Shown: positions 1,390-64,000 of the stretch, piece after piece | Layout: the number at the start of each line of letters is the position of its first letter | How positions within the stretch are numbered: the stretch's first letter is position 1 | DNA from: a virus | Direction: 5' to 3' (one strand) | IMG/VR virus record: IMGVR_UViG_3300029915_000005 | DNA length: 64,000 bases | Program-made: the position numbers and the translations under genes | The notes under the pieces: model-generated | The model's database searches: none | The model's input: only the letters and a program-made list of their open reading frames with translations | Told to the model about the DNA's origin: nothing

Positions 1390-2898
1390 TTATGACAATT
1401 TGAAATTTATTTTTCCACCTGGTTTACTATTCGCGTAAAAATTCTTATGACATTGGAATTTTATTTCACCTTCAAAACTTGGTGGCCAGATAACACTAAA
1501 ATCAGTATATGATGCGCCGTCTCCACTCACTGTCATTTTTGTTTTTATTTGAATCATATCACAACGAGATAAAATTTCTTTAAAAAATCCAGTTACAATA
1601 GATGTTTTTTCATTCAATTTCTCAGTCACAAGATATGCGATAGTTGCAAGCAAGTGTAATCCAAAACAATAATTAGGATTCTTTAGATTTGGCTTATATA
1701 CTGGATTAGTTAATACCTTTTGCAGTTTTTTAGTGACATCTTTTTTGGTTGCATTCGGATCATCGATTAATTCTTTAATTTTTTTCTGATCTGCTTTATC
1801 GATAAAATCGAACAGCACTCCCAATTCTAATACTCCATCTACTGCTGATTTGACTTTCAATAAAGTCAACACATTGAATAAATATTTGTATTTTTTCTGA
1901 CTGAGCAAATCAGAATATCTTTCTGGATTTTTTTCAATAGCAGTTGTTAAACTAACTACACTAGCTGCTGCCCCACCTTTACTATTCTTGGAACTTACTG
2001 CTAATTTGGTAGAATTATTAATATGTAAATAACTATCAACTAATTGTTCATTTCCTGCCATTGGAAATGAACAATTTTTTATTTTGGCCCAACTTGATCC
2101 CATTGGTTTAAGTAATTGATCTTCAACTTGTTTATATGCTCCAGAAATAAAATGACCTGTAAGTAGAGCAATTGGAGCAGCAGTCTCCCCAAGATCAACT
2201 TCATATGAATTGAAATGTTTTGCTGCGTTCGCCACTGGTTCAGAAAATCCAGCCCTAATATTATTTAATAATTTTGGAATTTGTGTAATTACTTCTTCTG
2301 GCAATTCAGTATGAGTAGCAATGTTTGTAGTAACTTGCTCAAGTAATCCATCAACATCAAAAAAATTATTTACTCCAACAACAGTAGATGGTTTCAAATT
2401 AAGATCAGCCTTTTGCTGTGCTACATTTTCAATTGCATAATCAGTGTCTCTTGCAAAATCTGAATTAGCCCAAAAAAATGGAACTGAGTTTAAACTTTTG
2501 GTGTTGAATAGTTTTACAAATGCTACAACTTGTTTTTGTTCATTAGTCCATAGCGTCACCAATGCCGCTCTTCCAGTATTATTAACAATGTGCCAATTAT
2601 TATTGGAAATTTTTGCTTGAATCTTATATTGCTCAAGTGCTTCCATTACTTTTTGCTGGCCAGTTTTAAGTAATTTTTTTTGATCTGCAAGTGGCAATCT
2701 TTTTGCGGCAGGAGGAAGCATATTTACAGTATCATTTTCATAATACATACCATTTTCAGGAAACACAACATTTCCCATAGCAGTTATGGTTTTTCCTTCT
2801 GGACTTTTAAAAACAATCAATTTTCCAGCAGCGGCTTCTTGACAACGCACATACAATCCCCTACTCCCCGCCTCTTTAATTATTTCGTTATATCTCAT
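1390..2898 (-). CDS. hypothetical protein with PD-(D/E)xK nuclease-like C-terminal half and capsid-tag-like N-terminus
   Basis: MRYNEIIKEA start; GE..APIA, FP..GNE.LVDS, VSSK motif spacing; TAAATA-5 nt-ATG. Confidence 0.5.
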   Translation of the reverse strand: MRYNEIIKEAGSRGLYVRCQEAAAGKLIVFKSPEGKTITAMGNVVFPENGMYYENDTVNMLPPAAKRLPLADQKKLLKTGQQKVMEALEQYKIQAKISNNNWHIVNNTGRAALVTLWTNEQKQVVAFVKLFNTKSLNSVPFFWANSDFARDTDYAIENVAQQKADLNLKPSTVVGVNNFFDVDGLLEQVTTNIATHTELPEEVITQIPKLLNNIRAGFSEPVANAAKHFNSYEVDLGETAAPIALLTGHFISGAYKQVEDQLLKPMGSSWAKIKNCSFPMAGNEQLVDSYLHINNSTKLAVSSKNSKGGAAASVVSLTTAIEKNPERYSDLLSQKKYKYLFNVLTLLKVKSAVDGVLELGVLFDFIDKADQKKIKELIDDPNATKKDVTKKLQKVLTNPVYKPNLKNPNYCFGLHLLATIAYLVTEKLNEKTSIVTGFFKEILSRCDMIQIKTKMTVSGDGASYTDFSVIWPPSFEGEIKFQCHKNFYANSKPGGKINFKLS

Positions 2899-2902
2899 AT
2901 CT

Positions 2903-3991
2903 TTATTTATTCAAATTAGCTCTTCCTTTAATATATCCAGCCACTTTATATTTTTCCCACTCTTCTTTTTTAATAGTTTTGCTTATATTTTTCTCAACAT
3001 TAGAAATCCACATATAATCACGAGTATTACTTAGCAAATGACCTTTTATATACCCCATTTGATTGTATAGAATAAAGTCTACTGGAAAAATTCTTTTAAC
3101 ATCTTTAATAATTAAATTGGTTATCCATATTTTTCCAATTGTTTTAGACTTAATTATTCCTCTAATCCATCCCAAATTTTTATATTTTAACCAATCACAT
3201 TTTTTAATTCTAATTTCTTGTTTCAACTTTAAATTTTTAATAAAAATAGTATCTTTCCATAAATTTGATTTTTCTTTTTTCAAATCATCAGACATTTTAT
3301 ACATCATTCCTTTTGAATATCCTGACTTTAAATACTTTTCTAAATCATTTTTAGAAATTAATATTTCTTCTGATCCATTATTAACCCATATTTTTCCAAT
3401 ATTTTCTTTTGCATTTTTACGTAATGTTTGAAATACTTTTTCTGGAGATCCTTTAATATATCCTTTCAATTCATATGAAGAAAGTTCTTTAATATTAATC
3501 ATTTTTCTATTTCCAGTTAAGGAGTTATAAATATGAATTTGGTCTTTCTTATTAGAAATCATTCCTTTCTTAAATCCCAAATTTTCAAATTTAGAAAAAT
3601 CAATTGGTAATATTTGTTTTTGACAATCTCCATTATTAATCCAGATTGTTCCTACGCTACTTCTAAAAGACTTAGAACCTACATGCAAATTATACCAAGA
3701 ATCATTATTGATTGCTTTAACTCTATAAAGAAATTTACTTTCATGCTCAACACATTTTTTCTTAGAATCAAAAATTCTACAAATCTTGATATCAAATATA
3801 TCTTTTCCTTCATTATCAATAATGTTTTTAATTATTTTGCTTGACGTAAAATAAATAGTCCATAAATCCTCAGGTTTGCATCCTTTTGCAAATCTGCATC
3901 CATAATATTTCTTTTTAGTTATTTTGTGAGTAATACAATATGTAAAAGGAGTTCTATCAATTGCAGTAAAAGTTGATGGATAAATATTCAT
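2903..3991 (-). CDS. GIY-YIG-type free-standing homing endonuclease with repeated WI(N/T)NG DNA-binding modules
   Basis: FTY-x9-YYGCR, YFTSS, E..FL, WYN; repeated IWINNG...GFKKG units. Confidence 0.75.
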   Translation of the reverse strand: MNIYPSTFTAIDRTPFTYCITHKITKKKYYGCRFAKGCKPEDLWTIYFTSSKIIKNIIDNEGKDIFDIKICRIFDSKKKCVEHESKFLYRVKAINNDSWYNLHVGSKSFRSSVGTIWINNGDCQKQILPIDFSKFENLGFKKGMISNKKDQIHIYNSLTGNRKMINIKELSSYELKGYIKGSPEKVFQTLRKNAKENIGKIWVNNGSEEILISKNDLEKYLKSGYSKGMMYKMSDDLKKEKSNLWKDTIFIKNLKLKQEIRIKKCDWLKYKNLGWIRGIIKSKTIGKIWITNLIIKDVKRIFPVDFILYNQMGYIKGHLLSNTRDYMWISNVEKNISKTIKKEEWEKYKVAGYIKGRANLNK

Positions 3992-4058
3992 GGCTGATTG
4001 CCTCCTGTGGCATTAGAGTGGTTAGAGATGGGAGTCTCGTGAACCACATTATTATTTA
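3992..4058 (-). promoter_or_regulatory. late promoter plus conserved structured 5' leader, copy 1
   Basis: TAAATA ataat GTGGTT cac GAGA ctccca TCTC t AACCAC tctaa TGCC acagga GGCA atcagcc ATG. Confidence 0.8.
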
Positions 4059-4078
4059 TCTTGATAAATATCTGTATC

Positions 4079-5041
4079 ATGAGAATATTTGAATTATTAA
4101 TGGAAGGCGGAAATGTTTTTGCAGGAAAGACTGCTTCTATTAAACGCGAAAATATTGAACCAACCATATCTGCCTATTTCAAAGAATTGAAAAAATTGTT
4201 TCCAAAGAAAGCTAATATTTTCAACTCGCAACATTTTGTACCACTTGGATCAGTTGGGAAGAAAGCAGTATCTGGCGATATAGACTTAGGAATAAGTGCA
4301 TCAGATATTTTAGATAAAACAATGAGTGATGCATCCATCTCTTTATGGGGTATTGATCCACTTGCTGTTCATAATGAAGCTCTATCTTTGGAAAAGAGAG
4401 CTAGAACAAGTGGACCTGAACGATTGAGAATGAAGGCTTTTTTAAAAATTCTTACTGCATACATTAATTCTAAAAATTCTGATTTATCATGTAATGAGAA
4501 GAAAGTTACTGATGGGAATATTTTTGGTTTGTTTCCACAGTTTGATGAATCAAGAAATAATTTAGGAATTGGAGTTCAAATCGATTGGATGATTGGAGAT
4601 TTAAACTGGCTTAAATTTTCTTATTTTTCATCTGCATATCCAGAAGGGTCAAATGTAAAAGGGCTACATGGCAGCGAACTATTGGCATCTGCTTTTCAAG
4701 TTGCAAATTTAATGTTTAGTCATATAAATGGTATCAAAGATAAAACAACAAATAAGTATATTTCTCATGATCCGCAAGAAGCATTAAATATTTTAGGAGA
4801 TCGTTTAGGAGTTATAATTCCCAGATCAGAAGTTGAAGATTATTACAGGCTTCATTCTTTATTGAAAAGCAAAATGCGTCCAGAAGATTATAATACATTA
4901 TTAAATGTTTATTTCAAAATCCTAGATTCAACTCACGGAGATATTCCTGATAACTTACAAAAAGAATGGTTAAAAAGAAAAAATTCTTTGGGATTAACTG
5001 GAAAATTTCTCCCAGATAATTCTGCTCTGAAGAATAAATAA
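4079..5041 (+). CDS. Pol-beta-superfamily nucleotidyltransferase with capsid-tag-like N-terminus
   Basis: MRIFELLME start after TAAATA; LGS-x6-SGDIDL and VQIDWM catalytic Asp pattern. Confidence 0.7.
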   Translation: MRIFELLMEGGNVFAGKTASIKRENIEPTISAYFKELKKLFPKKANIFNSQHFVPLGSVGKKAVSGDIDLGISASDILDKTMSDASISLWGIDPLAVHNEALSLEKRARTSGPERLRMKAFLKILTAYINSKNSDLSCNEKKVTDGNIFGLFPQFDESRNNLGIGVQIDWMIGDLNWLKFSYFSSAYPEGSNVKGLHGSELLASAFQVANLMFSHINGIKDKTTNKYISHDPQEALNILGDRLGVIIPRSEVEDYYRLHSLLKSKMRPEDYNTLLNVYFKILDSTHGDIPDNLQKEWLKRKNSLGLTGKFLPDNSALKNK

Positions 5042-5045
5042 TTTC

Positions 5046-8364: not shown

Positions 8365-8907
8365 ATGTCAGATATAAATATCGCAGCTATATTGGATAAT
8401 ATTAAGCAAGTTTCATTGTCTCCTTCAAGTATGGATATACTAAGAGAATTTGAAAGAGTTATTGATGAAAATGGTTGTTACGCTTTTCATCATTATAAAT
8501 CTTTAGAATTAGTAGAAGGACCAATTATATCTGCCTATAGAGTGAAATGCATTTTTATGAGTCCTCTCAAAAAAATGCCCGATCCTTCTGGAGCAGCAAG
8601 ATTGCTTCCATATGGAGTTAAAGTTAGTTATAAAAAAGCTTGGTTGAAATATCCAATTAAATTAAAATCTGAAAATGATTTTAGAGCAGGTATAAAAAAG
8701 CCAAAGATTGCCAAAACAGAAGTTTGGCTGGTATATATCGATATGCCAAAATACTTAATAAAAAATATTACTAGTGGTAGTAAAGAAATCATGGATAAAG
8801 AAATGGATATGAATGATATAGACGATGCATATGAAGAGGGGCTGGACTCTTATCGCGGAATAAAACAAGGAGAGCAAAAGCAAGAAGAAGAACATCCAGG
8901 ATTTTAA
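8365..8907 (+). CDS. hypothetical protein (late)
   Basis: 180-aa ORF; TAAATA boxes and SD AGGTG upstream. Confidence 0.7.
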   Translation: MSDINIAAILDNIKQVSLSPSSMDILREFERVIDENGCYAFHHYKSLELVEGPIISAYRVKCIFMSPLKKMPDPSGAARLLPYGVKVSYKKAWLKYPIKLKSENDFRAGIKKPKIAKTEVWLVYIDMPKYLIKNITSGSKEIMDKEMDMNDIDDAYEEGLDSYRGIKQGEQKQEEEHPGF

Positions 8908-8909
8908 AT

Positions 8910-9854
8910 ATGAAGAAATTGACTTTAAAAGAATTCATTGATAAAGCAAATATAGTTCATAATTTTAAATATGATTACATTAATAGCATATATATAAACA
9001 GTCGCTCAAAAATTATAATAAATTGCAAAATATGTAAAGTAAAATTTGCTCAAAATTCAAACAAACATTTGAGTGGAAAAGGTTGCCCTGCTTGTGGAGG
9101 AACTAAAAAAATTACCACAAAAGAATTCATTGATAAAGCAAATATAGTTCATAATTTTAAATATGATTACAGCAAATCCATATATGCAAATAATCATACC
9201 AAAATCATAATAATTTGCAAAAAATGTCATAATGAATTTACTCAAACTCCTAATAGCCATTTAGCAGGATATGGTTGCAAAAATTGTTTTTTCTATTCTT
9301 TAACATATAATATTGCTGAATTCATTGATAAAGCAAATATAGTTCATAATTTTAAATATGATTACAGCAAATCCATATATGCAAATAATCATACCAAAAT
9401 CATAATAATTTGCAAAAAATGTCATAATGAATTTACTCAAACTCCCCACAATCATTTAGCAGCAAAAGGATGCGCACAATGCTGTGAATCAAAAGGAGAA
9501 AAAATAATTAGAAAATATTTACTTGAAAATAACATTAATTTTGAAAACCAATTTAAAATTTCAAAATGTAAAAATAAAAGAATGCTATCATTTGATTTTT
9601 CAATTTTTGAAGCAGAAAAATTAATTGGATTGATAGAATTTCAAGGAATGCAACATTATAAATCTATTAAAAGCTGGGATGGCGAAAAAGGATTTATTCA
9701 AAGAAAATTTAGAGACTCTATAAAATCCAATTTTTGCAGAGAAAACAATATTCCTCTACTTATTATTCCATATTGGAATAAAAATAATATAGAAGAAATA
9801 TTAAATAATTTTATCATAAATATTAATAGGTGCAAATATGACGAAACTATTTGA
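8910..9854 (+). CDS. putative homing endonuclease: three Zn-binding DUF723-like repeats plus PD-(D/E)xK/Vsr-like C-terminus
   Basis: FIDKANIVHNFKYDY...CxxC...HL.G.GCxxC x3; SKGE, FDF, IEFQG.QHY, RD.IK, LLIIPYW. Confidence 0.75.
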   Translation: MKKLTLKEFIDKANIVHNFKYDYINSIYINSRSKIIINCKICKVKFAQNSNKHLSGKGCPACGGTKKITTKEFIDKANIVHNFKYDYSKSIYANNHTKIIIICKKCHNEFTQTPNSHLAGYGCKNCFFYSLTYNIAEFIDKANIVHNFKYDYSKSIYANNHTKIIIICKKCHNEFTQTPHNHLAAKGCAQCCESKGEKIIRKYLLENNINFENQFKISKCKNKRMLSFDFSIFEAEKLIGLIEFQGMQHYKSIKSWDGEKGFIQRKFRDSIKSNFCRENNIPLLIIPYWNKNNIEEILNNFIININRCKYDETI

Positions 9855-10404
9855 AGGATTTGAAGTAAGTGATTTGGTAAATGTATTGGAACCAAAAATT
9901 CATATAGACGAATTCAACTCAAAAATGGGAAAAGACGATGATATAATTGTTCTGTCTTTTTTGATTAATGACAAACAAGCAAGTATCGATTTTATTGATT
10001 TTATAGAAAGAGGATATAATTTCGTGCTGGACTGTGATATATCAGATAGCGAATTAAAGCCAGGTAGTTATTTAGTTTTCGTAGAATTATTAAGAAGACG
10101 ACGAGTTATTGATCAAATTTTTCAGTTGCTTTCTGATTTATCTGCTGCAAGTCAACTAAATATAAACGATTGGAAGTTTCGTTATATGAATTCAGAAAAT
10201 TACTATCCAGTGACTGCCAAAGAAATGAAACTACATATTCCGTTATATCCAAGAGCTTACAATGAAAAATATAATAAGCCAATTGAAGATGTAAAACAAC
10301 TTGCAGGTCTTCAAACTGAAAATTATTATTATAAAGATTCATTAATTGAACAATTACAATTTAATGCAGGTGTACACAATGTCAATAAAAACAGTAATCT
10401 CTAA
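9838..10404 (+). CDS. hypothetical protein
   Basis: 188-aa ORF, SD AGGTG; MTKLFE start; IDEFNSKMG.DDD. Confidence 0.7.
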   Translation: MTKLFEGFEVSDLVNVLEPKIHIDEFNSKMGKDDDIIVLSFLINDKQASIDFIDFIERGYNFVLDCDISDSELKPGSYLVFVELLRRRRVIDQIFQLLSDLSAASQLNINDWKFRYMNSENYYPVTAKEMKLHIPLYPRAYNEKYNKPIEDVKQLAGLQTENYYYKDSLIEQLQFNAGVHNVNKNSNL

Positions 10405-12314: not shown

Positions 12315-14561
12315 ATGTCCAATAAAAGAATGGGAAGTAAAAGTGCTCCATATATGAGAACAGACAACACTGGCCTTTTTCATAGCCCTGGACCATATAT
12401 TGCAATTGTAAAGAATAATATAGATCCCAGTCGTGCTGGGAGATTGCAAGTTTATATCCCACAATTTGGAGGAAGCGATGAAAATAATCCATCCAATTGG
12501 TTGACTGTTTCTTATGCTTCTCCTTTTGCTGGACAAACACGGCAACGAATTGACGTAAATTCATACGTTGATACCAACATAGACGTAACTAATCAATATG
12601 AGAATAGCTTTCAAAGTTATGGATTTTGGTTCGTTCCGCCTGATTTAAATGGTCGAGTGTTGGTTATTTTTGCTAACGGTGATCCATCACAAGGATATTA
12701 TTTTGCTTGTATTAGAGATTCTATGGATTCACATATGACTCCTGGAATTGGTGCCGTAAAAGCATCAAAAAGTGCAACAGATGGTGGCTATATTTGGCGT
12801 CCTACTGGGGCAAATGCTATAGCAACTCATACAATGCTGCAATCTTATATTGAATTAACTCAAAATGGTAAATCTGAGATTCCTTTTAGATTACCAGTAA
12901 GCGAACCTGTATTAATAGCTCAAGCAAATTCATCTCCTTCCACCCCGTTGCAAGTTCAAATGGTTCCGCAAGTTTATCAAACAAAACAATTAGGAATGCA
13001 AGGACTAGCTTTTGATTTTATTAGAGGGTCCACTAGCGCATCTAGTGTAAGGGAAAATCCTAGTCAAGTATTTGGTATTAGTACTCCAGGTAGATTAATA
13101 TCTTTTGCTAATGTAGCAACTAGTGCAAGTGTCATTTCACAAATTCAAGAATTTTTAAATTCTAATCAAGTAGAAATAGTTAGTAACAATCAAGAAAATC
13201 AAGATTCTTTAACAAAATCTCTTACTTGCACATATAGAACAGGAGGCCATTCATTTGTAATGGATGATGGCACCATCGATGGATTTGATCAAGGGATAAG
13301 AATCAGAACAACTTCTGGCAATGAAATTTTGATGGATGATACTAATGGGCAAATTTACATAATTAATAGCCAAGGAACAGCTTGGGTTGAACTTTCTCCT
13401 TCTGGGTATATTGACATATTTTCAGCTAATAATTTTTCTATTAGAAGTCAAGGTGATATTAATTTTCATGCTGATAAAAATATCAATATGAATGCAATTG
13501 GAAAAATTAAAATTCATAGCGGAGACACGACTCAAATTGATAGCATTGGCTCTTTAACTACCAGATCATCCAGTGATTTTACACTATACAGTACTGATTC
13601 AATACAATTAGGGACTTCTGGAACAGTAGCCATAGATTCAAAAGGAGCAGGAAGCATTCAAAGTGGAGATGTATTAAATATTAAAGGAACTAAAATAAAT
13701 TTGAATAGCGGAAGCGGAAAGAATGTTAAAGATCCTGGAATATTACAGCAAAGTAAACAAATTGATGTTATTCAATCTGATGGAAGTAAAGTATGGTGGT
13801 CCAATGGTAAATTTGACTCTATTTGTTCTCGTGCTCCTGCTCATGAACCTTGGCCAAATCATGAGATAAATGGTATCAAAACTACTGCGGCTCAAGGAAA
13901 TGATTCAGGCCAATCAATAGTTAGACCGCAAACAGGAACTACAAGTTCTGGAGTTCGCGGCACAACAACAGGAAAAACAATAAATGAATCTCAAATTGCT
14001 TCCCAGCCAGTAGTTGGAGTTTTATGCGGATTAACTGTTAGACAAACTCAAGCGTTATTGGCGCAAATTGGACAAAATGAAAATAGTGGAAATTATTCTG
14101 GTCAAAATTCATTGGGATTTGCTGGAAAATATCAACTTGGAGCAGATGCTCTCATTGATTGTGGGTTAATGAAACAAGGAAGTCATTCGTCTGGAACTAA
14201 TTTAACAGCAATAAATAATCCAGCTAATTGGACCGGAAATCCATGCAGTAGTGTTTCTGATTTCTTAAATAATCCATCTATTCAAGAACAAGCAATAATG
14301 TTATATACAAAAAAGCATTGCATATCATTACAAAAGGCAAAAGTTATAACTTCAGCATCTACACCAGAAGAAATTGGGGGTTATTTAATGGCTGCTCATT
14401 TAGTGGGAGTTGGAGGAGCAATCAAGTTATTTCAAATTCAAAATAATTTACAATCGTCGTCATCTGCTTTAACTAAAGATGCAAATGGAACAACAAGTAA
14501 TTACTATTTTGCTCAAGGCTCAAATGCAGTTGCTTTGGGAAGCAGTTCAGAAAAAGCATAA
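12315..14561 (+). CDS. gp5/VgrG-like baseplate spike: OB fold, beta-helix and C-terminal lysozyme-like domain
   Basis: GPYIAIVKNNIDP.RAGRLQVYIP, YGFWFVPPD, GHSFVMDD, IRIRT.SG; C-terminal ENSGNY..N.LG..GKYQ.G, AAHL.G. Confidence 0.8.
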   Translation: MSNKRMGSKSAPYMRTDNTGLFHSPGPYIAIVKNNIDPSRAGRLQVYIPQFGGSDENNPSNWLTVSYASPFAGQTRQRIDVNSYVDTNIDVTNQYENSFQSYGFWFVPPDLNGRVLVIFANGDPSQGYYFACIRDSMDSHMTPGIGAVKASKSATDGGYIWRPTGANAIATHTMLQSYIELTQNGKSEIPFRLPVSEPVLIAQANSSPSTPLQVQMVPQVYQTKQLGMQGLAFDFIRGSTSASSVRENPSQVFGISTPGRLISFANVATSASVISQIQEFLNSNQVEIVSNNQENQDSLTKSLTCTYRTGGHSFVMDDGTIDGFDQGIRIRTTSGNEILMDDTNGQIYIINSQGTAWVELSPSGYIDIFSANNFSIRSQGDINFHADKNINMNAIGKIKIHSGDTTQIDSIGSLTTRSSSDFTLYSTDSIQLGTSGTVAIDSKGAGSIQSGDVLNIKGTKINLNSGSGKNVKDPGILQQSKQIDVIQSDGSKVWWSNGKFDSICSRAPAHEPWPNHEINGIKTTAAQGNDSGQSIVRPQTGTTSSGVRGTTTGKTINESQIASQPVVGVLCGLTVRQTQALLAQIGQNENSGNYSGQNSLGFAGKYQLGADALIDCGLMKQGSHSSGTNLTAINNPANWTGNPCSSVSDFLNNPSIQEQAIMLYTKKHCISLQKAKVITSASTPEEIGGYLMAAHLVGVGGAIKLFQIQNNLQSSSSALTKDANGTTSNYYFAQGSNAVALGSSSEKA

Positions 14562-19144: not shown

Positions 19145-20092
19145 ATGCGTATTTATACAACTACTGATTTCATATTATCGTCTATTTCTAAACATAATAA
19201 TGAATTGCTTTCTTATGAAAAAACTATTTTCACTAGTAAAAACTCCAAAGTAATTATTACTTGCAAACTTCACGGCGATTTTGAGCAAATAGCAAAAATT
19301 CATTTGAAGGGGCATAGTTGCCCTCAGTGCGGCCATAATTATCGAGCCAATTTAAATAGATTAACCACTGAACATTTTATTAATGATGCTAATAAAATTC
19401 ATAATTTTTTCTTTTCATATGATAATTCTTTTTATATTGGTAGAAATCGCAAAATAACTATTACTTGTCCCTTTCATGGTGAGTTTAATCAAATGGCAGG
19501 AAATCATTTAAATGGCTTTGGGTGTCCCAGTTGTTCTGGTTGCAAAAAATTAACAACTGAAGAATTTGTAAGAAAAGCCAATATTAAACATAATTTTAAA
19601 TTTGATTATAGCAAGTCAATTTATATAGGTGCTCATTCAAAAGTTATTATAAGTTGCCCAGAACATGGTGAGTTTACTCAGAAACCAAATTGTCATTTAT
19701 CTGGCGCTGGCTGTCCTGTGTGTAAAGAATCAAAAGGAGAACGAGAAATTCGCATAAATCTTAAAGAATTAAAAATGAATTTCAAATACCAATACTCTTT
19801 TAAAAATTGCAAAAATATAAAACCACTGCCATTTGATTTTGCATTATTTAATAATAAAAAATTAATTGGTCTAATAGAATATCAAGGTATACAGCATTAT
19901 AAAGTAGGTTCTTTTGGTAGTAAATCAAAATCAATAGAAGATAAAATTAAAGATTTATATGAAATTCAATCTAGAGACTTAATTAAACTAAATTATTGCA
20001 AAACAAATAAAATTCCTCTTTTAATTATTCCTTATTGGAATCTGAGTAATATCAAAAATATTTTGTCTAATTATTCATATCCACCATCATAG
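19145..20092 (+). CDS. putative homing endonuclease (DUF723-like Zn repeats plus PD-(D/E)xK), inserted antisense between gp55- and gp47-like genes
   Basis: C..HG.F.Q...HL.G.GCP.C x3; SKGE, LPFDF, IEYQG.QHY, LLIIPYW. Confidence 0.78.
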   Translation: MRIYTTTDFILSSISKHNNELLSYEKTIFTSKNSKVIITCKLHGDFEQIAKIHLKGHSCPQCGHNYRANLNRLTTEHFINDANKIHNFFFSYDNSFYIGRNRKITITCPFHGEFNQMAGNHLNGFGCPSCSGCKKLTTEEFVRKANIKHNFKFDYSKSIYIGAHSKVIISCPEHGEFTQKPNCHLSGAGCPVCKESKGEREIRINLKELKMNFKYQYSFKNCKNIKPLPFDFALFNNKKLIGLIEYQGIQHYKVGSFGSKSKSIEDKIKDLYEIQSRDLIKLNYCKTNKIPLLIIPYWNLSNIKNILSNYSYPPS

Positions 20093-25075: not shown

Positions 25076-25411
25076 ATGAGAATTTATGAGTTATTTGAAG
25101 ACTTACCTGGCTTAATGAATATTCCAAAACTAGGAACCATGAAACCAACTGGGACTACTACTGCTAATACAAGTCAAGCAAATACACAACCAACTATAAA
25201 TTCTATTCCCCCAAACACACAACAACAATTTACTCGTGGAACTACTGTAACTGTACCAGAAGGTCCAGGAAATGTAAAAACTCAACTGAAAATTAATGCA
25301 GTGGATCCTATGAATAAAACTGTAACTGTAGTTAATCCACTTAAACCAAATGATCCTGGATTAACTTATAAACAAGCAGATTTTGCGAATGTAATGGCAT
25401 CGCACTCATAA
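25076..25411 (+). CDS. small Thr/Pro-rich protein with capsid-tag-like N-terminus
   Basis: MRIYELFED after TAAATA and SD AGGTG. Confidence 0.6.
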   Translation: MRIYELFEDLPGLMNIPKLGTMKPTGTTTANTSQANTQPTINSIPPNTQQQFTRGTTVTVPEGPGNVKTQLKINAVDPMNKTVTVVNPLKPNDPGLTYKQADFANVMASHS

Positions 25412-25786: not shown

Positions 25787-25830
25787 AAATAATACCCAAA
25801 TTGAGTCGATTTTATAGCATAAATAATAAT

Positions 25831-29289: not shown

Positions 29290-29341
29290 GCAAATATAAT
29301 TATATTCTTGATATACGGTATTTTCAATCATAAATACTATT

Positions 29342-48262: not shown

Positions 48263-48291
48263 GTTTATTCTTTTTTTGTATAAATACTTAT

Positions 48292-48753
48292 ATGGAAATA
48301 GATATATTAGATACTGGTCATTGGATTGCCCCATGGAAATTTGATGTAAATAAATTTGTTGGATTTCAATATAGAATTACTCAAATCTCTACAAATAGAC
48401 AATATATCGGCAAAAAATTTTTTTATTCTATAACAAGAAAAATAGTCAAAAACAAAAAAAATAGAAAAAAAATAATTAAAGAATCAAATTGGAAAAACTA
48501 TTGCGGGTCGTGTAAGTGGCTTCTATCTGAAATAGAAAAGTGTGGAAAAGAAGATTTTATATTTCAAATAGAATCATTGTGTGAATCTCGATCAAATCTT
48601 GCATGGAGAGAAGTAGAACGATTAGTTAAAGAAAATGTGTTGAGAGAGAAATTACAAGATGGGAGTCCAAAGTACTTTAACGGAATCATTCCGCCAGTAA
48701 AATTTAAAATTTGTGAAGAAACCCAAAATGAAAAGGAATATAAAATTGATTAA
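48292..48753 (+). CDS. short GIY-YIG-family nuclease
   Basis: GFQY.IT...TNRQYIGKK, ESNW.NY.GS, Y.N; TATAAATA-5 nt-ATG. Confidence 0.75.
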   Translation: MEIDILDTGHWIAPWKFDVNKFVGFQYRITQISTNRQYIGKKFFYSITRKIVKNKKNRKKIIKESNWKNYCGSCKWLLSEIEKCGKEDFIFQIESLCESRSNLAWREVERLVKENVLREKLQDGSPKYFNGIIPPVKFKICEETQNEKEYKID

Positions 48754-49461: not shown

Positions 49462-51714
49462 ATGCCAGAATTTAATAATCAATCATTTTTAATTAAGAAT
49501 ATCATTGATATGAGTTTTCAGTTGGCTATTGGTTTAAATCAAACCACTATCACTTCTGAACATATTTTATATATAGCAATTCAAAATTCTAAAGTAAAAG
49601 AATTTTTTAATAATCAAGGTATTGAAACTCAAAGTTTATTAAATGATATTTTTAATTACATCAAATCTCAATCCCATTTATTGAAAAATCAAATTTTTAA
49701 TGAAAATCCAGACGTTATGACTGGTCAAATTACTGCATCAGTTCAAATGATCATTGTTAATGCTGCAACTGACGCCCGAAAAAATAATCGTGAAATTTCA
49801 CATTATGATATATTTAACAATATTTTGAAAAATACTGAATCATATGCCAGTTATTTTATGACAAAATATGGAATTGATGAGGAAATGATTAAAAAAATGA
49901 ATGATGCTGTTGATATTAATAAATCAGCTTTGGATGAATTTTGTATTAATCTTAACGAAAAAGTAAAAAAGAATTATGATGTTCTTATTGGCAGAGAGAC
50001 AGAATTGTTCAGTATTGCTCATACTTTGGCAAAAAAGAAGAAGAGCAATGTTTTAATGATTGGCGATCCTGGAGTGGGAAAGTCGCAGATTGTGGAAGGT
50101 TTGGCACACAATATTAATATTGGAAAAGTACCCAAAATTCTAAAAGATAAGATTATTTTTAGTTTGGATGTGGGTGGTGTGCTGGCTGGTTGCAGATATC
50201 GCGGAGATTTTGAAGAAAAAATCAAAAATATTATTTCAGAATTAGTTGCAAATCCAAAAGCTATTTTATTTGTAGACGAAGCTCATCAGATGGATGCTGG
50301 TGAAGGAAAGAGTCAATCAGGTGTTGGTTTTTCAGCAATGTTGAAGCCAGAACTTTCTCGCGGAAACATTAAAGTTCTAGCAGCGACTACATGGGAAGGA
50401 TACCGTCAAACATTTGAAAAAGATTCTGCTTTGATGCGCAGATTTAGGGTTCTGAATATCGATGAGCCTTCTCATGAAGAAACTATTTTGATTCTTAATG
50501 GCAATAAACTTTCCATGGAGAAATTTCATCATTGCAAAATTAATCAAGATGCAATTAAAGCAGCCGTTGAATTAACTGGAAGATATCAAACTGATAGAAA
50601 ATTTCCAGATAAAGCAATTGATGTTATTGATAGCGCGTGCGCAAGAACTCAAGTTTTATCATTAAAAAATAAAATTGTTAATAGAGAATCTATAGTTGCT
50701 GAAGTTTCAGAAATCACTGGGATTCATATTAAAGATACTGATACAAAAACTTCAATGGATATTTTGACAATTGGAAGTATATTAAAAAATAAAGTATTTC
50801 ATCAAGATAACGCTATTGATTCTGTATCTGAAGGCTTGATTATTGCTCAATCTGGTCTGCGTGATCCAAATAAACCAATTGGAAGTTATGTATTTACTGG
50901 TCCTTCTGGCGTAGGAAAAACATTTCTCGCCAAGCAAATCGCTGCTCATATGAATATGTCATTACTTAAATATGATATGAGTGAATTTCAAGAAAAGCAT
51001 ACTCTTGCTCGTTTGATTGGAGCACCTCCTGGATATGTAGGGTTTGGTGATGGCGGGACAGGCGAAGGTCAACTTATTAATGATATTATCAAACATCCGA
51101 ATTCAGTAATTTTGTTCGATGAAATGGAAAAAGCACATCCTGATATTTTTACTATTCTTCTCCAATTATTAGATGATGGCAAAATTACAGGAACAACTGG
51201 AAAAGTAGCTGATTGCAGAAATTCAATTGTGGTAATGTGCAGCAATCTTGGCTCTAAAGAAAGTGAAAAATTGAATTTAGGATTCAATACCAATAATAGT
51301 GGAAAGAGTGAAACTTCAAAAGCAGTTGATTCATTTATGTTAACAGAACTTCGTGGAAGAATCACTGGTATTGTTGAATTTAACAAATTGGACGATATTA
51401 GCCTTCGTAGAATAGTTAATGAAAGAATTTTAGATATTGAATCTTTATTAAAGGATAAGAGCATTAAGCTCATCCCCAGTGAAAATTTAATAGATCATAT
51501 TCTTTCACTAAATACTGATAGTCAATATGGTGCTCGAAAGATTGCAAAAATTGTTGATTCAACAATTAAGTATCCTTTAAGCGTAAAATTATTAAATGGC
51601 GATATATCTAATAATTCAAATGTTCATTTGGATTGGTGTAATAATGTTTTAACTGTAAATCATTCTATTTCTACTGTTAAAATAATGAAAAAAGTTGCCC
51701 AACCAACAATTTAG
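49462..51714 (+). CDS. clpA: ClpA/ClpB-family double AAA+ chaperone
   Basis: GDPGVGKS, YRGDFEE, FVDEAH, DSALMRRF, PDKAID, GPSGVGKT, LIGAPPGYVG, DEMEKAHP, GAR. Confidence 0.88.
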   Translation: MPEFNNQSFLIKNIIDMSFQLAIGLNQTTITSEHILYIAIQNSKVKEFFNNQGIETQSLLNDIFNYIKSQSHLLKNQIFNENPDVMTGQITASVQMIIVNAATDARKNNREISHYDIFNNILKNTESYASYFMTKYGIDEEMIKKMNDAVDINKSALDEFCINLNEKVKKNYDVLIGRETELFSIAHTLAKKKKSNVLMIGDPGVGKSQIVEGLAHNINIGKVPKILKDKIIFSLDVGGVLAGCRYRGDFEEKIKNIISELVANPKAILFVDEAHQMDAGEGKSQSGVGFSAMLKPELSRGNIKVLAATTWEGYRQTFEKDSALMRRFRVLNIDEPSHEETILILNGNKLSMEKFHHCKINQDAIKAAVELTGRYQTDRKFPDKAIDVIDSACARTQVLSLKNKIVNRESIVAEVSEITGIHIKDTDTKTSMDILTIGSILKNKVFHQDNAIDSVSEGLIIAQSGLRDPNKPIGSYVFTGPSGVGKTFLAKQIAAHMNMSLLKYDMSEFQEKHTLARLIGAPPGYVGFGDGGTGEGQLINDIIKHPNSVILFDEMEKAHPDIFTILLQLLDDGKITGTTGKVADCRNSIVVMCSNLGSKESEKLNLGFNTNNSGKSETSKAVDSFMLTELRGRITGIVEFNKLDDISLRRIVNERILDIESLLKDKSIKLIPSENLIDHILSLNTDSQYGARKIAKIVDSTIKYPLSVKLLNGDISNNSNVHLDWCNNVLTVNHSISTVKIMKKVAQPTI

Positions 51715-52375: not shown

Positions 52376-52393
52376 TTGTGTTTAAATAAATGT

Positions 52394-54083: not shown

Positions 54084-54995
54084 ATGAAAGAAAATAATAC
54101 AAATCAATTTTATGTTTATCAATATATTAGAAAGAATGATTCTAAAAATGGATTAGCTGGAACTCCTTATTATATTGGTAAAGGAAAAAATAATAGAGCA
54201 TATCAAAGAGTGCATGGTAATAATGTTTCAGTTCCAACAGAACTATTCAGAATTCAAATAATTTCAGAAAATTTAACTGAAGAAGCAGCTTTTCAATTAG
54301 AAATTGAATTAATTAAAAAATATGGCAGGATAGATAAAAGAAATGGTTGTTTACAAAATAGAACATCTGGAGGAATGGGGTTTAAAGGAAAAATAAATTC
54401 ACCAAAATGTAGAAAGTTAATTTCAGAAAACAATTTAGGAACAATTGTAATAAGTAATGAAAAAACGAAAATATGCAAACGAATTAAACCAGAAAATTTA
54501 AAAATATATATGCAAAGAGGATTTAAACTTGGATATTTGAAAGAAAGTTCAGAAATTCGATCTAAAGCGTTAAAAGGAAAAAATATATGGACATCAAAAC
54601 AACTTTGGATTACTAATGGCTATATTGAAAAATTAATTAAATCAGAAAATAAAGAAGAATTTTTAAATAATAATTTTAAGTTGGGTAGATTGAAAAATTC
54701 AGAAGAAACTATTATTAAAAAATCAAATAATCAGAAAAATAAACGATGGGTTAGAAACGATAAAGAAGAAAAATTGGTTAATTTGGTTGAATATGAAACA
54801 TATTTATTGAATGGTTATATTAAAGGAAGATTTGCAATGAGAGAAGATACAAAGAAAAAGAAATCAATTATTACGCATACCAAACGATGGGTTAATGATG
54901 AAATTACAAATTTTTATATTAATGAATCATTAGTACCAGAATTCATTAATAAAGGATATAAATTAGGAATGATACATAAGGATAAAAATAAATGA
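54084..54995 (+). CDS. GIY-YIG homing endonuclease with WITNG-type repeats
   Basis: FYVYQY...PYYIGKG...RA, E..LI..YGR.D, N.T.GG. Confidence 0.82.
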   Translation: MKENNTNQFYVYQYIRKNDSKNGLAGTPYYIGKGKNNRAYQRVHGNNVSVPTELFRIQIISENLTEEAAFQLEIELIKKYGRIDKRNGCLQNRTSGGMGFKGKINSPKCRKLISENNLGTIVISNEKTKICKRIKPENLKIYMQRGFKLGYLKESSEIRSKALKGKNIWTSKQLWITNGYIEKLIKSENKEEFLNNNFKLGRLKNSEETIIKKSNNQKNKRWVRNDKEEKLVNLVEYETYLLNGYIKGRFAMREDTKKKKSIITHTKRWVNDEITNFYINESLVPEFINKGYKLGMIHKDKNK

Positions 54996-55902: not shown

Positions 55903-56118
55903 ATGAATATTTGCGCTGTCAGTAATAAAATTCCATTTACTTATCTTGTAACTCAAAAATCAACAGGAAAAAGATATTATGAATCAAAATATGGAAAAAA
56001 TTGTCATCCATCTGATATTGGAACAAAATATTTTACTTCGAGTAAAGAAATTAAAAAATTTAATATTTCTCCCAAAACTGTTAGAAATATAGTTAAAATA
56101 AAAACTTGGAAATATTGA
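55903..56118 (+). pseudogene. truncated GIY-YIG paralogue of 2903..3991
   Basis: PFTY....K.TGKRYY...NCHPSD...YFTSS then an abrupt HTH-like tail. Confidence 0.6.
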
Positions 56119-56129
56119 TAAATATCAAT

Positions 56130-56654: not shown

Positions 56655-56691
56655 GTGGTTTTTCTTTTTGAATTAAATTATAAATATAAGT

Positions 56692-57210
56692 ATGAAGATT
56701 AATGAAGTCATTATCGATAATGAAAATGGATTAGGAGGAGTTTCATATAATCAAGAAATTGATTATCTTGGTCTTAGAGTGCTAATGTATCCATCCACAT
56801 TTTTAAGCCTAGCATATTATAGAAGTCGAAACGATTTAGGAAATGTTGACTATATAAAAAATTATATTAAAAATGGTGGGACTATTGGCGCTCCATTCCT
56901 TCAAATAAGTATTCCTAATAGATGGGAGAATGATGATTATTCTATTCCATCCATAGTTATTGGTCATGAAGGAAGAAATAGAATGATGGCACTCGATGAA
57001 CTTCAAGATGAAGGATTAGAACCTGATGTGCCAGTTGAAACTCATTTATTGTTTTATAAATATAGAGCCAGGCATTTAAAACCAGAATGGATAATACAAT
57101 TAAATAAACAACTTTATAATCAAAATACAGAATATGAATATCATTCTGGAGAAGTGGCTTATACAGATAGCCCTATAACCAAAGGGCCATTGTTTAAGGT
57201 TGTAAATTAG
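56692..57210 (+). CDS. ParB/Srx-like protein, tagged N-terminus
   Basis: MKINEV; I.APFL, GHEGRNRM.AL, VPV. Confidence 0.55.
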   Translation: MKINEVIIDNENGLGGVSYNQEIDYLGLRVLMYPSTFLSLAYYRSRNDLGNVDYIKNYIKNGGTIGAPFLQISIPNRWENDDYSIPSIVIGHEGRNRMMALDELQDEGLEPDVPVETHLLFYKYRARHLKPEWIIQLNKQLYNQNTEYEYHSGEVAYTDSPITKGPLFKVVN

Positions 57211-58100
57211 ATATAAAAGATTTTACTAAATTATCAATATTTTCTTTATTCCAATATGGAATTATTAATAATGGAATATTATTAATATTACAATAATTAT
57301 ATTTTATATAATCATTTTTCTTAGTAGATTCAAAATATTTTTGAAAAATAGGTTCATAATGTTGTTTTCCTTGGTATTCAATTAATCCTATAATTTTATT
57401 ATTTTTAATAATCCCTATATCAAAAGGTAATGGATATTTATTTTTGCATAATGTAATTCTTATTTGTTCATCAAATTCTATTGGTAATGATTCCAACGTT
57501 TTTATAATTTTTAATTCTCCAGAACTTCTTTTACATTTTGGACATTTTCTTCCCATTAAGTGTTTATTTGGGCTTTGCCAAAAAGAGCCATGCTTCTTAC
57601 ATATTATTTCAACTTTTTGGCGTGAAGTTAAATAATTTACATTATCATAAATAAATTCATTTTTGTGTATGATAATAGCTTTTGTTATAAATTCTTTTGT
57701 ATTGCTTGTTTTTGTTTTAGAAATACTGTTAAATCCACATTGTGGACAACCAATTTTTTGTAAATGCACGCCGGGGGCTTGTTTAAAAATTCCATGTTCC
57801 TTACATTTTATATCCATTTTCTTTTTGGCGTTGTAATAAGTTTTAGAAATATAAGAATATTTAAAATTATGAATAATATTTGCAGAGTTAACAAATTCTG
57901 TAAATGTTCTATTAAATCCACAGCATTTTGGGCAACCATTTCCTGATAAATGTGCATGAGAAGATTGCAAAAATTCTCCATGAATTGGGCAAATAATTAT
58001 TAATTTGTTTTTTGCATTAATGTATATAGATTTACTATAATTATATTTAAAATTATGAATTTGATTTTGATATAAAATATGCAGTAGTATAAATAGTCAT
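57194..58100 (-). pseudogene. DUF723-repeat/PD-(D/E)xK endonuclease, frameshifted near codon 14
   Basis: ATG 58100 gives MTIYTTAYFISKSNS*; shifted frame resumes IHNFKYNYSKSIY... into ORF 57194..57970. Confidence 0.72.
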
Positions 58101-58172: not shown

Positions 58173-58193
58173 TGAAAAAGAATAAATATAAGT

Positions 58194-61211: not shown

Positions 61212-61254
61212 AGCATGATGGAGAAAATTATTTAAGTATTGAATTGAGTAAAAT

Positions 61255-61524: not shown

Positions 61525-62191
61525 TGAATTTGACAAATCGAAAGGTTTTTCAGCTTATGTAAAAGAAGATGAGACTAAAATTTTAATATTCTTAAATAAG
61601 CATTGCAGTGAAATTATGTCTTTGTATAGAGAATATGGAAAAGTATTGTATCGCGGCATCACACGATATTTTGGCAGTAATATATATAATTTCAAAGATG
61701 GAGATGTATTTTTCGGAAAATCCCCATCTGATAGACACCCAATAGATATACCATCTTCAGTACAGAAGCAAATAGATAGTAAATTACAAAAAAGTGGGTT
61801 TGAAGCATTAAGATCAAACAGCATTTTTTGTTGTTCTTCTAAACTATCAGCGCAAAAATATGGTGACCTACATATTATATTTCCATTGGATGGATTTTCA
61901 TATACATGGTGTAATACTGCTATTGATTTATATGACGAATATGTAAGAGCTTTGACTCCCACTCCTTGGGGTGAGACACCATCACAAGAAGATATTAATA
62001 AAGCAGAAATATTTAAAGAAAATTTATATAAGCTTTCTTCAACTGATTTTATTAGAGATTATGGTTTCAAGAATACAGATTTAACTCATGCAATTATTAG
62101 AAATAATGAAATTTTAATTCATGGTGACTATATCGCAATGAGCGAGAAATTAGGAAATAAAATAATATTTAGTAATAGGAGAAGTATATAA
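61514..62191 (+). CDS. ADP-ribosyltransferase-like paralogue 2
   Basis: MLLNEF; LYRG, RSNSIFC, A..YG, NEILIHG. Confidence 0.5.
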   Translation: MLLNEFDKSKGFSAYVKEDETKILIFLNKHCSEIMSLYREYGKVLYRGITRYFGSNIYNFKDGDVFFGKSPSDRHPIDIPSSVQKQIDSKLQKSGFEALRSNSIFCCSSKLSAQKYGDLHIIFPLDGFSYTWCNTAIDLYDEYVRALTPTPWGETPSQEDINKAEIFKENLYKLSSTDFIRDYGFKNTDLTHAIIRNNEILIHGDYIAMSEKLGNKIIFSNRRSI

Positions 62192-62628
62192 TGAATAACT
62201 TAGAAATGAGTCTGAAAGTGGCGACTGCAACTGTTTTTCATTTAGGAATTAAATTTCATATTGGGCATTTTAATATAACTGGTCCAAGATTTTTCGAGTT
62301 ACATTTATTGCTTGAAAAAATATATCAAAATCTTGAAAGTAATTTTGACAGTATTGGTGAGCAACTTAGAGCATTGGATATATTTGTTCCATCGTCCGTA
62401 AATGAATTACTTAGTTTATCAGTTATAGAAGATTTTCAAGAAGTATTGCCAGCAAATGAAATGATTCATGAATTATTGATTGACAATGATAAATTATTGG
62501 AAATGCTAACTGAAGTTGATAAATTGGCAGTAAATCATATTGGTCTTCAAAATTATATTGAAGGATTAGCAGATCAACAAGAAAAGTTTGGTTGGTTTTT
62601 AAGAGCAACATTACAAGCAGTAAAATAA
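62191..62628 (+). CDS. dps: Dps ferritin-like DNA-protection protein
   Basis: HFNITGP.F.ELH...E.IY, D.IGE..RAL, EK..WFL. Confidence 0.85.
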   Translation: MNNLEMSLKVATATVFHLGIKFHIGHFNITGPRFFELHLLLEKIYQNLESNFDSIGEQLRALDIFVPSSVNELLSLSVIEDFQEVLPANEMIHELLIDNDKLLEMLTEVDKLAVNHIGLQNYIEGLADQQEKFGWFLRATLQAVK

Positions 62629-63228
62629 ATGAAAATATGTGAACTACATATCGATGCTTCTGCTTTTGAACAGCAAGGATTAATTCTTAAAAAAGCTTTG
62701 GAAGAAGTGTCAGTATTATGCTCAGAATTTTTAAAATTTTATGAAGAAGCTGGACCAATGTATCATGGATTTCAATCAGCACCAAGTAATATTTTTGTAG
62801 GGGAACCACATACAGATAGAAAACCATTATCGCTTACTTATAAAGAACAATATGAGATAGATAAAAAATTATCATTGGCAGGATTTCATCAATTGCGTGG
62901 CAATAGTTTGTTCTGTATAGGAAATATTACAACAGCATCTGAGTATGGTGCAGTTTATCAAATTTTTCCAAAGAATGGTTTTAGATATACTTGGAGTGAT
63001 TTTTGCGATTTAGTTACAGATATAAGATATACAGAAATGATGTATGATCTTCATTCTTTAAGTCCCAATGATTTTGCTGATAAGTATGAATTTAGGGAAA
63101 ATATGGGATTATCATTGGCTTTACAACAAGGAAAAGAAATATATCTTGGTGGAGAATTTATTGCAATATCAGAATTAATGGTAACTAGACATTCAAATAC
63201 ATATTTACAGTGGACAAAAACTTTATGA
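62629..63228 (+). CDS. ADP-ribosyltransferase-like paralogue 3
   Basis: MKICEL; MYHG, RGNSLFC, A.EYG.VY.IFP, KEIYL.G. Confidence 0.5.
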   Translation: MKICELHIDASAFEQQGLILKKALEEVSVLCSEFLKFYEEAGPMYHGFQSAPSNIFVGEPHTDRKPLSLTYKEQYEIDKKLSLAGFHQLRGNSLFCIGNITTASEYGAVYQIFPKNGFRYTWSDFCDLVTDIRYTEMMYDLHSLSPNDFADKYEFRENMGLSLALQQGKEIYLGGEFIAISELMVTRHSNTYLQWTKTL

Positions 63229-64000
63229 AAATAAACGAAATCAGTAAAAAAATAAAGATTGGAATGCATCCCTCAAATGAGCCAGAAGATAAAATTGTTC
63301 AGTTCATTAAGAAAAACTGTTCTCAAATTGTAAAAGTTTATGAAAACAGTCATAGTAATTTTTTATTCAGTGGGAAAGAGTCTTATAGTGATGTATTTTT
63401 TGGCAAACCTATTAATAATAGAGCACCACTGGGAACAGACCGCAAGATCAATAATAAATTAAATAGTGTTCTAAGACAAGTTGGATTTAAAGCACGACGA
63501 GATAATAGTATTTTTACTACTTCTATGGAAGTTACAGCGCAGGAATATGGCAAAGTATATATAATTTTTCCATTGAATGGTTTTGACTATTCGTGGTGTG
63601 CTCTTGCTGAAGATTTAACTATGGAGTTTGATATTGGCGAAAAAAAATATAGTGTCTCCAGAGAGAATAATGAATTTTACAATGATTTGATTACATTGCT
63701 GCCACAAGAGTTTGTTCAAAAATATCATTTTAAAAATAATGAAGGATTTGAATATGCATTGACAAATGGATTTGAAATTTTGATACACGGAAGTTATGTT
63801 GCAATTAGCGAAGAATCTTCTTTATTAGAAATAATATTACCATTTTATAGATTTAATGAAGATAACGATTTAGAAGAATCAGCATCGTGCGGATCAACTA
63901 GTTCTGGATCGATTGCAACTGTCAACGGAACAAACACTCCTCCATCTGGGCAATTTTTTGGTGGAGATCCTAATAGTTCAGTATATGGAAAAATTAAGAG
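63225..64000 (+). CDS. ADP-ribosyltransferase-like paralogue 4 with a fused downstream module; 3'-truncated by the window
   Basis: MKINEI; LFSG, RDNSIFTTS, A.EYG.VYIIFP, FEILIHG, then DLEE|SASCGSTSSGSIA; open to window end. Confidence 0.55.
   Translation, partial: MKINEISKKIKIGMHPSNEPEDKIVQFIKKNCSQIVKVYENSHSNFLFSGKESYSDVFFGKPINNRAPLGTDRKINNKLNSVLRQVGFKARRDNSIFTTSMEVTAQEYGKVYIIFPLNGFDYSWCALAEDLTMEFDIGEKKYSVSRENNEFYNDLITLLPQEFVQKYHFKNNEGFEYALTNGFEILIHGSYVAISEESSLLEIILPFYRFNEDNDLEESASCGSTSSGSIATVNGTNTPPSGQFFGGDPNSSVYGKIK

Follow-up and report, generated by a model that had tools for sequence, protein, structure and literature searches.

A stretch of 64,000 nucleotides (nt) of DNA from an uncultured giant phage related to bacteriophage T4 (IMG/VR record IMGVR_UViG_3300029915_000005, hereafter the window, this being the whole stretch that was analyzed) encodes, as judged from sequence, accessory proteins of at least seven kinds which carry a common short N-terminal tag approximating the motif M-[KR]-[IL]-x-E-[ILVF]. 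Comparison of homologues indicates that this tag is real, modular and portable, and that it ends at a site of the type predicted to be cut by gp21, the prohead protease of bacteriophage T4. Considering the combined evidence, the shared N-terminus probably represents a capsid-targeting propeptide of the T4 kind, placed on enzymes that are carried in the phage head and released with the DNA. Targeting, cleavage and injection in the phage represented by the window, as well as an action of the cargo on the host, are steps that we infer from this likeness. In what follows, genes are designated by the first coordinate of their open reading frame (ORF), and an arrow (↓) marks a predicted cut (Table 1).

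The first-pass annotation of the window had listed eleven such N-termini, said to sit on otherwise unrelated ORFs. All eleven ATG codons and the corresponding peptides were recovered, each ATG being the first of its own ORF, and eight of the eleven fit the motif, the sequences MRYNEI, MRLQNL and MLLNEF being the exceptions. The strict motif is found at 8 of 60 gene starts, compared with 2 of the remaining 2429 Met codons of the six frames (Fisher p=3e-12), and still at 6 of 57 gene starts when paralogues are collapsed (p=3e-9). Shuffling the columns of the 60 N-termini produced 0.57 matches on average and 5 at most over 20000 trials; because of these shuffles and the internal-Met controls, sequence composition was rejected as the cause of the motif. 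A position-specific scoring matrix (PSSM), trained solely on the tags of nucleotidyltransferase (NTase) homologues from other genomes, ranked exactly the eleven claimed carriers as the top 11 of the 60 window genes, with no clear score gap below the eleventh gene. The sequence [ILV]-x-E is present within residues 2-10 of all 11 tagged proteins as against 2 of the 49 untagged ones, while position 4 is F or Y in 4/11 tags and the residue following the first E is hydrophobic in 10/11.

The assertion that housekeeping and baseplate genes lack the tag held, since the baseplate, recombination, PhoH, lysin and Clp-like genes are all without it. The bodies behind the tag are indeed diverse, but they are not eleven unrelated proteins: the 45255, 61514, 62629 and 63225 products are paralogues (phrog_11975) and the 61255 product is similar to the unit at the C-terminus of the 58194 protein, and therefore about seven independent families should be counted instead of eleven.

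The boundary between tag and body was followed in the family of the 4079 protein, for which the proposed Pol-beta-type NTase body was borne out by Foldseek matches to Pol beta, lambda and mu (probability 1.0, E about 3e-4, TM 0.35-0.43). Residues G57, S58, D67 and D69 of its signature G-S-x(n)-D-x-D are invariant, and the modelled protein is assigned, at the level of the fold, as a Pol-beta-like palm. The AlphaFold (AF2) model has a pLDDT of 90.5 overall as against 31 for residues 1-10, the tag thus being left unanchored in the model. The corresponding NTase of Flavobacterium phage immuto begins M-GGNVF, i.e. at the start of the window body, with a stop codon just upstream. Among 117 metagenomic NTase homologues, ten are tagless, 12 are fusions (386-554 aa) and 95 are tagged, with 81 distinct tags of 6-34 residues; E occupies P1 in 78/81 of these tags and L, I or V occupies P3 in 80/81, while all 12 fusions display [ILV]-x-E at the junction. 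In the 12 tags of exactly ten residues, position 4 is always F and position 7 is always F or Y.

The same arrangement is encountered more widely. In four families the homologues carry tags of 5-34 residues which start as M-[KRL]-[ILT]-x-[EQ]-hydrophobic and end in [ILV]-x-E right before the conserved body, and other homologues in these same families are either tagless or fused into polyproteins with [ILV]-x-E at the junction. Homologues of the 1390 protein bear the tags MRISELLNE↓SAGG and MRAFEIIIE↓SEGG, one member (P0249) has just Met-Ala ahead of the conserved RGL (MARGLAAR), and fused proteins of 1500-2200 aa contain a ..[ILV]xE↓[AS]KG junction before the domain. The family of 56692 includes the tags MRAKEFLKE↓VTIDN and MKTFVEYISE↓VNINN, near-tagless forms (MEYRVDN, MDLVDN) and fusions of the type ..ALTE↓DVEIDN. 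Phage homologues of the HAD protein encoded by 56130 align to it from residues 8-12 onward only; its orthologue is tagged in the related contig G001 (MRAREFIIE↓N) and untagged in the related contig G003, and a second HAD gene of the window, at 53243, is untagged and begins directly at MKIIFLDIDGVL.

The assignments made earlier to the bodies fared unequally. The HAD nucleotidase is upheld by a match to phrog_2643 (5.5e-21) and the GNAT domain of the 58194 protein by a Pfam match (1.6e-8). The nuclease-like nature of the 1390 protein is a lead whose basis is an Atlas score of 0.89, according to which the body is possibly a PD-(D/E)xK-like nuclease of the restriction endonuclease type; the ParB/Srx assignment of 56692 is likewise a lead, for which Atlas points to ParB_N, DUF6551, DndB and GmrSD_N. 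Neither the 56692 family nor the 1390 family gave a match when its profile was searched against sequences from the PDB, and six carriers have no match in Pfam even at E<=5. For the 25076 and 1390 proteins no homologue was found in cultured phages. In the 58194 protein, the internal sites VINE↓EPDFNYTKFN and IINE↓APDFGYKSFN each stand before paralogous units, this placement ahead of repeated units being a suggestive hint of processing junctions; the 61255 ORF aligns to the last unit of this protein (E=2e-7). The idea that the 58194 polyprotein is enriched overall in [ILV]xE was dismissed, with 16 sites observed and 13 expected.

The four paralogues had been described as resembling ADP-ribosyltransferases (ART), a reading towards which the AF2 model (pLDDT 84) leans: its VIA-align list is dominated by ADP-ribosyltransferase folds (Arr, exotoxin A, diphtheria toxin, DarT and PARPs) at Z 3-5, which is below the level that excludes chance, while Foldseek of the same model returned nothing at E<=0.001. 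Within this ART-like family M1 and E5 are invariant in 18/18 members; R56, N84-S85 and E167 are invariant too, and R82 lies within a conserved LRSNS stretch. The 63225 ORF continues past its ART-like domain with ..LEE↓SASCGSTSSGSIATV (about 63850-64000). A peptide (A/S)TSSGS(I/V)ATV follows an ..E↓ site in three settings, namely this ORF, the major capsid protein of G001 (131207-132382), where it occupies the predicted mature N-terminus (YLGE↓AATAGATSSGNVATL), and an 81-aa tagged ORF of G003 (202423-202668; MKIADLLE↓AATAGATSSGSIATV). Such a peptide could be a mimic of the capsid arm.

The codons that specify the tag vary (AGA/CGT, TTA/CTA), and tags are found behind Shine-Dalgarno sites, behind TAAATA and inside proteins; on account of these three properties the sequences argue that the tag acts at the level of the protein and not of the RNA.

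A second line of evidence is provided by what is known of the T4 capsid targeting sequence (CTS), which reads MKTYQEFIAE (PMC8442874) and in which positions 4 and 7 contribute to targeting and positions 8 and 10 to processing (PMC9026906). The homologue tags MKTFVEYLTE, MKTFAQYLAE and MKSFREFIVE, all of ten residues, keep all four functional positions, position 4 being F, position 7 F or Y, position 8 I or L and position 10 E. In the T4 record, comparable N-termini are those of gp24 (MAKINELLRE), gp22 (MLKEQLIAE), gp21 (MNEPQLLIE) and Alt (MELITE↓LFDE). Alt is cleaved at ITE-6 (PMC5694885), and it therefore offers a precedent for propeptides of five or six residues such as MKINE↓.

The machinery required for such processing is present in relatives. 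The three large related contigs from IMG/VR that were searched (230, 259 and 353 kb; the longest is 99% complete) all encode a gp21-type protease (Peptidase_S77), as do Atu_ph07 and immuto. The head module of G001 follows the T4 order: portal, an 80-aa ORF (MLLNEF), an acidic 320-aa ORF, the protease, a 362-aa ORF and the major capsid protein. In this protein YLGE↓AATAGATSSG precedes the conserved N-arm, and the 362-aa ORF at the scaffold position corresponds to phrog_10922, a PHROG without assigned function. The 80-aa tagged ORF was considered as a gp67 homologue, an assignment that was put aside because it would be positional only, the ORF matching just a function-less PHROG.

For evidence from virions, the list obtained by electrospray ionization tandem mass spectrometry (ESI-MS/MS) for Atu_ph07 (PMC6102473 Table S5) was used as a proxy, 138 of its 140 proteins being assigned to ORFs on the basis of gene order and exact molecular weight. 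A protein was scored as tagged if it starts with M[KR] and contains an [ILV]-x-E ending at residues 5-10, and as detected if it was represented by at least two peptides. By these definitions 21 of 33 tagged proteins were detected; among the untagged proteins the figure was 86 of 793 (odds ratio 14, p=3.5e-12). After paralogues had been collapsed, 10/19 tagged clusters were detected as against 74/722 others (p=8e-6). In Atu_ph07, the same kind of tag thus predicts the proteins that are detected in virions. All 14 members of the ART-like family, gp59-63 among them, were detected; this homologue cluster has the tags MRWHQLxE and MRLFQLLE, and a tagless NTase homologue lies beside it. The strict motif and the NTase-derived PSSM transfer poorly to this phage, whose tags have W at position 3.

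The first-pass annotation had also placed most tagged genes behind TAAATA late promoters. Six of the eleven are directly downstream of such a sequence, but the other five are located further downstream in same-strand runs. Eight window genes, half of them tagged, lack a Shine-Dalgarno sequence and have a TAAATA whose end lies exactly 5 nt ahead of the ATG (Table 1); if these are late promoters of the T4 type, the corresponding mRNAs would be leaderless or nearly so. The genes 56692 and 58194 share an identical upstream string of 13 nt (AATAAATATAAGT). The association of tag and TAAATA is apparent in relatives, with 12/19 tagged genes of G003 behind this sequence as against 55/476 others (p=3.5e-7), and with p=0.013 in G001.

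Table 1. Tagged carriers of the window and TAAATA sequences ending 5 nt before an ATG. Body assignments are predictions; ↓, predicted cut.
Feature	Coordinates	Strand	Tag	Context
502-aa tagged ORF	1390..2898	-	MRYNEIIKE↓AGSRG (2872-2898)	TAAATA 5 nt upstream of ATG; phage-only family
Pol-beta-type nucleotidyltransferase, 320 aa	4079..5041	+	MRIFELLME↓GGNVF (4079-4105)	TAAATA 8 nt upstream
111-aa tagged ORF, no fold assigned	25076..25411	+	MRIYELFE↓D (25076-25099)	behind TAAATA and a Shine-Dalgarno site
ART-like paralogue 1, phrog_11975, 197 aa	45255..45848	+	MKIFE↓V	begins 1 nt past the stop of the tail-fibre gene
HAD 5'-3' deoxyribonucleotidase, 174 aa	56130..56654	+	MRLYEIKE↓DQKIYIDLDGVL	TAAATA 5 nt upstream
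Candidate ParB/Srx-like protein, 172 aa	56692..57210	+	MKINE↓VIIDN	TAAATA 5 nt upstream
Multi-domain protein with GNAT domain, 1005 aa	58194..61211	+	MRLQNLFE↓E	TAAATA 5 nt upstream
GNAT-unit-like ORF, 89 aa	61255..61524	+	MRISE↓V	
ART-like paralogue 2, 225 aa	61514..62191	+	MLLNE↓F	overlaps the end of the preceding gene
ART-like paralogue 3, 199 aa	62629..63228	+	MKICE↓L	
ART-like paralogue 4	63225..64000	+	MKINE↓I	runs past the window end; ATGA overlap with the previous stop
Possible twelfth carrier, 66-aa ORF, not previously listed	886..1086	+	MNTFSEPVIAE↓G	start close to the T4 CTS MKTYQEFIAE
TAAATA+5-nt sites of tagged genes	2899-2909 (- strand), 56119-56129, 56681-56691, 58183-58193			
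TAAATA+5-nt sites of untagged genes 25831, 29342, 48292, 52394	25820-25830, 29331-29341, 48281-48291, 52383-52393			

Taken together, these data suggest the following order of events. Accessory proteins with the tag (the Pol-beta-type NTase, the HAD nucleotidase, GNAT units, the ART-like paralogues, the candidate ParB/Srx-like protein and the candidate nuclease) would be produced late in infection, and their amphipathic start M-[KR]-[IL]-x-E-hydrophobic would tether these proteins to the prohead's scaffolding core. A prohead protease of the gp21 type (Peptidase_S77) would then cleave after [ILV]-x-E, either removing 5-9 residues or parting the domains of a polyprotein, and the mature enzymes would be kept in the head to exit with the DNA at the next infection. 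From the folds of the cargo we infer that it may have a host-modifying or anti-defence role. The earlier proposal of a portable tag which loads diverse late enzymes into the head is hence retained in its essentials (modular boundaries, likeness to T4, the protease of relatives and the enrichment in Atu_ph07 virions all speak for it), but with smaller counts than had been advanced.

Several observations weigh against this proposal. Both the protease and the virion evidence come from relatives and not from the window's own phage, of which 64 kb were read, and inside the window alone the association of tag and TAAATA has p=0.17. Tags of five residues (MKINE, MKIFE) are by themselves too short to be told from ordinary N-termini, and a nucleotidase is an odd choice for an injected effector. 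The tag definition applied to Atu_ph07 was written after its MRWHQLxE tags had been seen, and under definitions that had been fixed before, the odds ratio is 3-4 (p about 0.015). The virions of this phage were purified with polyethylene glycol (PEG) only, and RecA-like, SSB and RNR proteins are also listed, with 1-3 peptides. Moreover gp65 of Atu_ph07 (L066 2054-2887), the tagless NTase homologue, was found in virions with 10 unique peptides; it starts MGGRAFDG, with a stop 11 codons upstream, and its presence means either that packaging is not always tag-dependent or that the preparation carried over abundant late proteins. Finally, tagless orthologues also exist in protease-bearing phages such as immuto. 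In that phage the NTase gene lies among primase, exonuclease and NadR genes, and the enzyme is therefore probably an unpackaged early one there. The idea that tagless orthologues mark phages devoid of a gp21-type protease was rejected, since immuto and the contig G004 possess the protease together with a tagless NTase.

It is also conceivable that the tag loads the prohead and is cut, while the cargo works inside the head, in scaffolding, DNA condensation or protection, or consists of toxic late enzymes that are sequestered there, rather than being an injected arsenal. The structural evidence set out above fits this explanation equally well, and neither a nucleotidase acting on deoxynucleoside monophosphates (dNMP) nor a ferritin-like neighbour is an obvious effector. 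We nevertheless regard it as unlikely, considering that the CTS cargo of T4, i.e. the internal proteins IPI-III and Alt, enters the host with the DNA, where IPI is required to counter GmrSD, a restriction enzyme (PMC3012670, PMC5694885), and that the predicted folds of the cargo (ART-like, NTase, GNAT and candidate nuclease) are those of enzyme types and not of packing proteins.

Two further explanations dispense with the head altogether, and we give very little credence to either. The shared start might be an N-terminal degron, or a helix recognized by an AAA+ protein, by which the phage's own Clp-like ATPase or host ClpXP would time or limit the enzymes; the window does encode a 750-aa ATPase of this kind (49462-51714; phrog_4871, annotated as an ATP-dependent protease), and N-termini of the M-basic-hydrophobic type loosely resemble an N-terminal recognition motif of ClpX. 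A degron would account neither for the conserved [ILV]-x-E exactly at the boundary of the body, nor for the same motif inside fused proteins at their junctions, nor for some tags being nearly identical to the T4 CTS, nor for tagged proteins being enriched in the virions of Atu_ph07. Just as improbable is a motif without any role in the protein, be it a bias in N-terminal codons at 30% GC, an element of translation start or leaderless mRNA, or a recombining cassette of promoter plus start, as might be suspected from the AT-rich genome, from the exact 5-nt spacing of TAAATA before the ATG in eight genes, four of them tagged, and from the upstream string common to 56692 and 58194. Composition is ruled out by the controls already described; the untagged genes 25831, 29342, 48292 and 52394 have the identical TAAATA-plus-5-nt layout; orthologous tags differ in their codons and also occur behind ordinary Shine-Dalgarno sites; the motif recurs within polyproteins, away from any translation start; and relatives of 38-39% GC possess it too. 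A cleavable capsid-targeting propeptide therefore remains the preferred interpretation.

The remainder of the window, which has a GC content of 30%, contains a baseplate set of the T4 type, comprising a lysozyme-containing gp5-like hub, gp25, a gp6-like wedge of 1152 aa and a neighbour of 4033 aa, together with gp46/47-like nuclease subunits, PhoH, an endolysin, the Clp-like ATPase and several homing endonucleases. The gp6-like protein has about 33% identity to its counterparts in Vibrio phage 2.275.O, the PA5oct group and Atu_ph07. The 4033-aa ORF (29342-41443, + strand) follows the wedge gene, a slot that is filled by proteins of 4270 aa in G001 and 3425 aa in G003. The gp5-like hub gene is located at 12315-14561 in the window and adjoins gp25 in relatives (G001 107200-109452, G003 238493-239875); the slot which it left beside gp25 in the window is occupied by the small tagged ORF 25076-25411. 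This ORF is an accessory insertion within the baseplate module, at a position where G001 and G003 hold the gp5-like hub, between a large structural gene and gp25. A ferritin-like (Dps-like) gene without a tag (62191-62628, + strand; Pfam PF00210, 7.5e-11) lies amid the run of tagged genes. The ORFs 9838-10404 and 8365-8907 (both + strand) match PHROGs annotated as virion structural proteins and display a TAAATA-TTAATAGGTG-type leader as at 25076; the N-terminus of the former, MTKLFE↓GFE, contains a possible additional cut site. The window also has three HNH endonuclease paralogues of 43-47% identity (8910-9854, 19145-20092 and 57194-57970), and a second set of homing-endonuclease-like ORFs (2903-3991, 48292-48753, 54084-54995 and 55903-56118) is dispersed among the phage genes.

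If the tag works as it does in T4, sequence alone would show which proteins many uncultured phages deliver with their DNA. The predicted cargo consists mostly of enzymes (ART-like proteins, a nucleotidyltransferase, acetyltransferases and a candidate nuclease), and early host takeover and counter-defence by pre-made proteins would then be much richer than the T4 model suggests. The chances appear evenly balanced for a broader statement, namely that throughout a large T4-related clade of uncultured giant phages, of which Atu_ph07 is a cultured member, late proteins with a tag of the form M-[KR]-hydrophobic-x-[EQ]-hydrophobic...[ILV]-x-E are loaded into the head and freed by the protease, single enzymes and polyproteins alike. 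Such a clade-wide cargo code would equip these phages with dozens of injected enzymes made in advance, many more than the few head-delivered proteins characterized in T4, and would allow candidate injected proteins to be predicted directly from metagenomes.

The principle is known from T4, and a portable CTS on varied cargo has been proposed as an evolutionary device in T4 reviews (PMC3012670, PMC9026906). What is new is the number of carriers and their enzymatic nature, the minimal and extended forms of the tag, the motif as punctuation of polyproteins, and the spread over a large uncultured clade with cultured members; full-text literature searches returned no paper describing the number or enzymatic nature of the carriers, the range of tag forms, the polyprotein punctuation or the clade-wide spread.

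Among other phage systems, the Dar antirestriction proteins of P1 and the ejection proteins of P22 are likewise packaged in the head and delivered with the DNA; to our knowledge they have neither a common short cleavable tag nor gp21-type processing. The giant phages phiKZ, 201phi2-1 and SPN3US resemble the present case in having many head proteins and a gp21-related protease that cuts after Glu (PMC5694885), but they belong to another phage lineage, cleavage in them follows (S/A/G/T)-x-E, most of their propeptides exceed 100 residues, and a short common N-terminal tag has not been described for them. Closer is Atu_ph07, in which gp53-63 and others include true homologues of the ART-like and NTase proteins, have the tags MRWHQLxE, MRLFQLLE and MKTLQDYLTE, and were detected in virions by mass spectrometry (PMC6102473), the difference being a tag consensus with W at position 3 and Q at position 5. 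That paper presents these as hypothetical virion-associated proteins and, in the parts consulted, makes no mention of a shared tag (PMC6102473).

The likeness to T4 itself comprises a short putative N-terminal propeptide of 6-10 residues with hydrophobic or aromatic positions and an (I/L)-x-E end, portable between unrelated bodies, and, in relatives, a head module of the T4 type that includes an S77 protease. Some homologue tags agree with the T4 CTS in 5-6 of its 10 positions, the four functional ones among them. An ART-like enzyme is among the predicted cargo, as is Alt in T4. Alt modifies the host RNA polymerase early in infection, in keeping with its product name in the T4 record. The differences concern extent and kind: T4 has four known cargo proteins, whereas the window by itself encodes at least 11 carriers, which belong to about 7 families; the internal proteins of T4 are small and basic, whereas the cargo predicted here consists mostly of enzymes; and minimal tags of 5 residues, long tags of 12-34 residues and polyproteins with the cut motif at their junctions are all predicted here from sequence.

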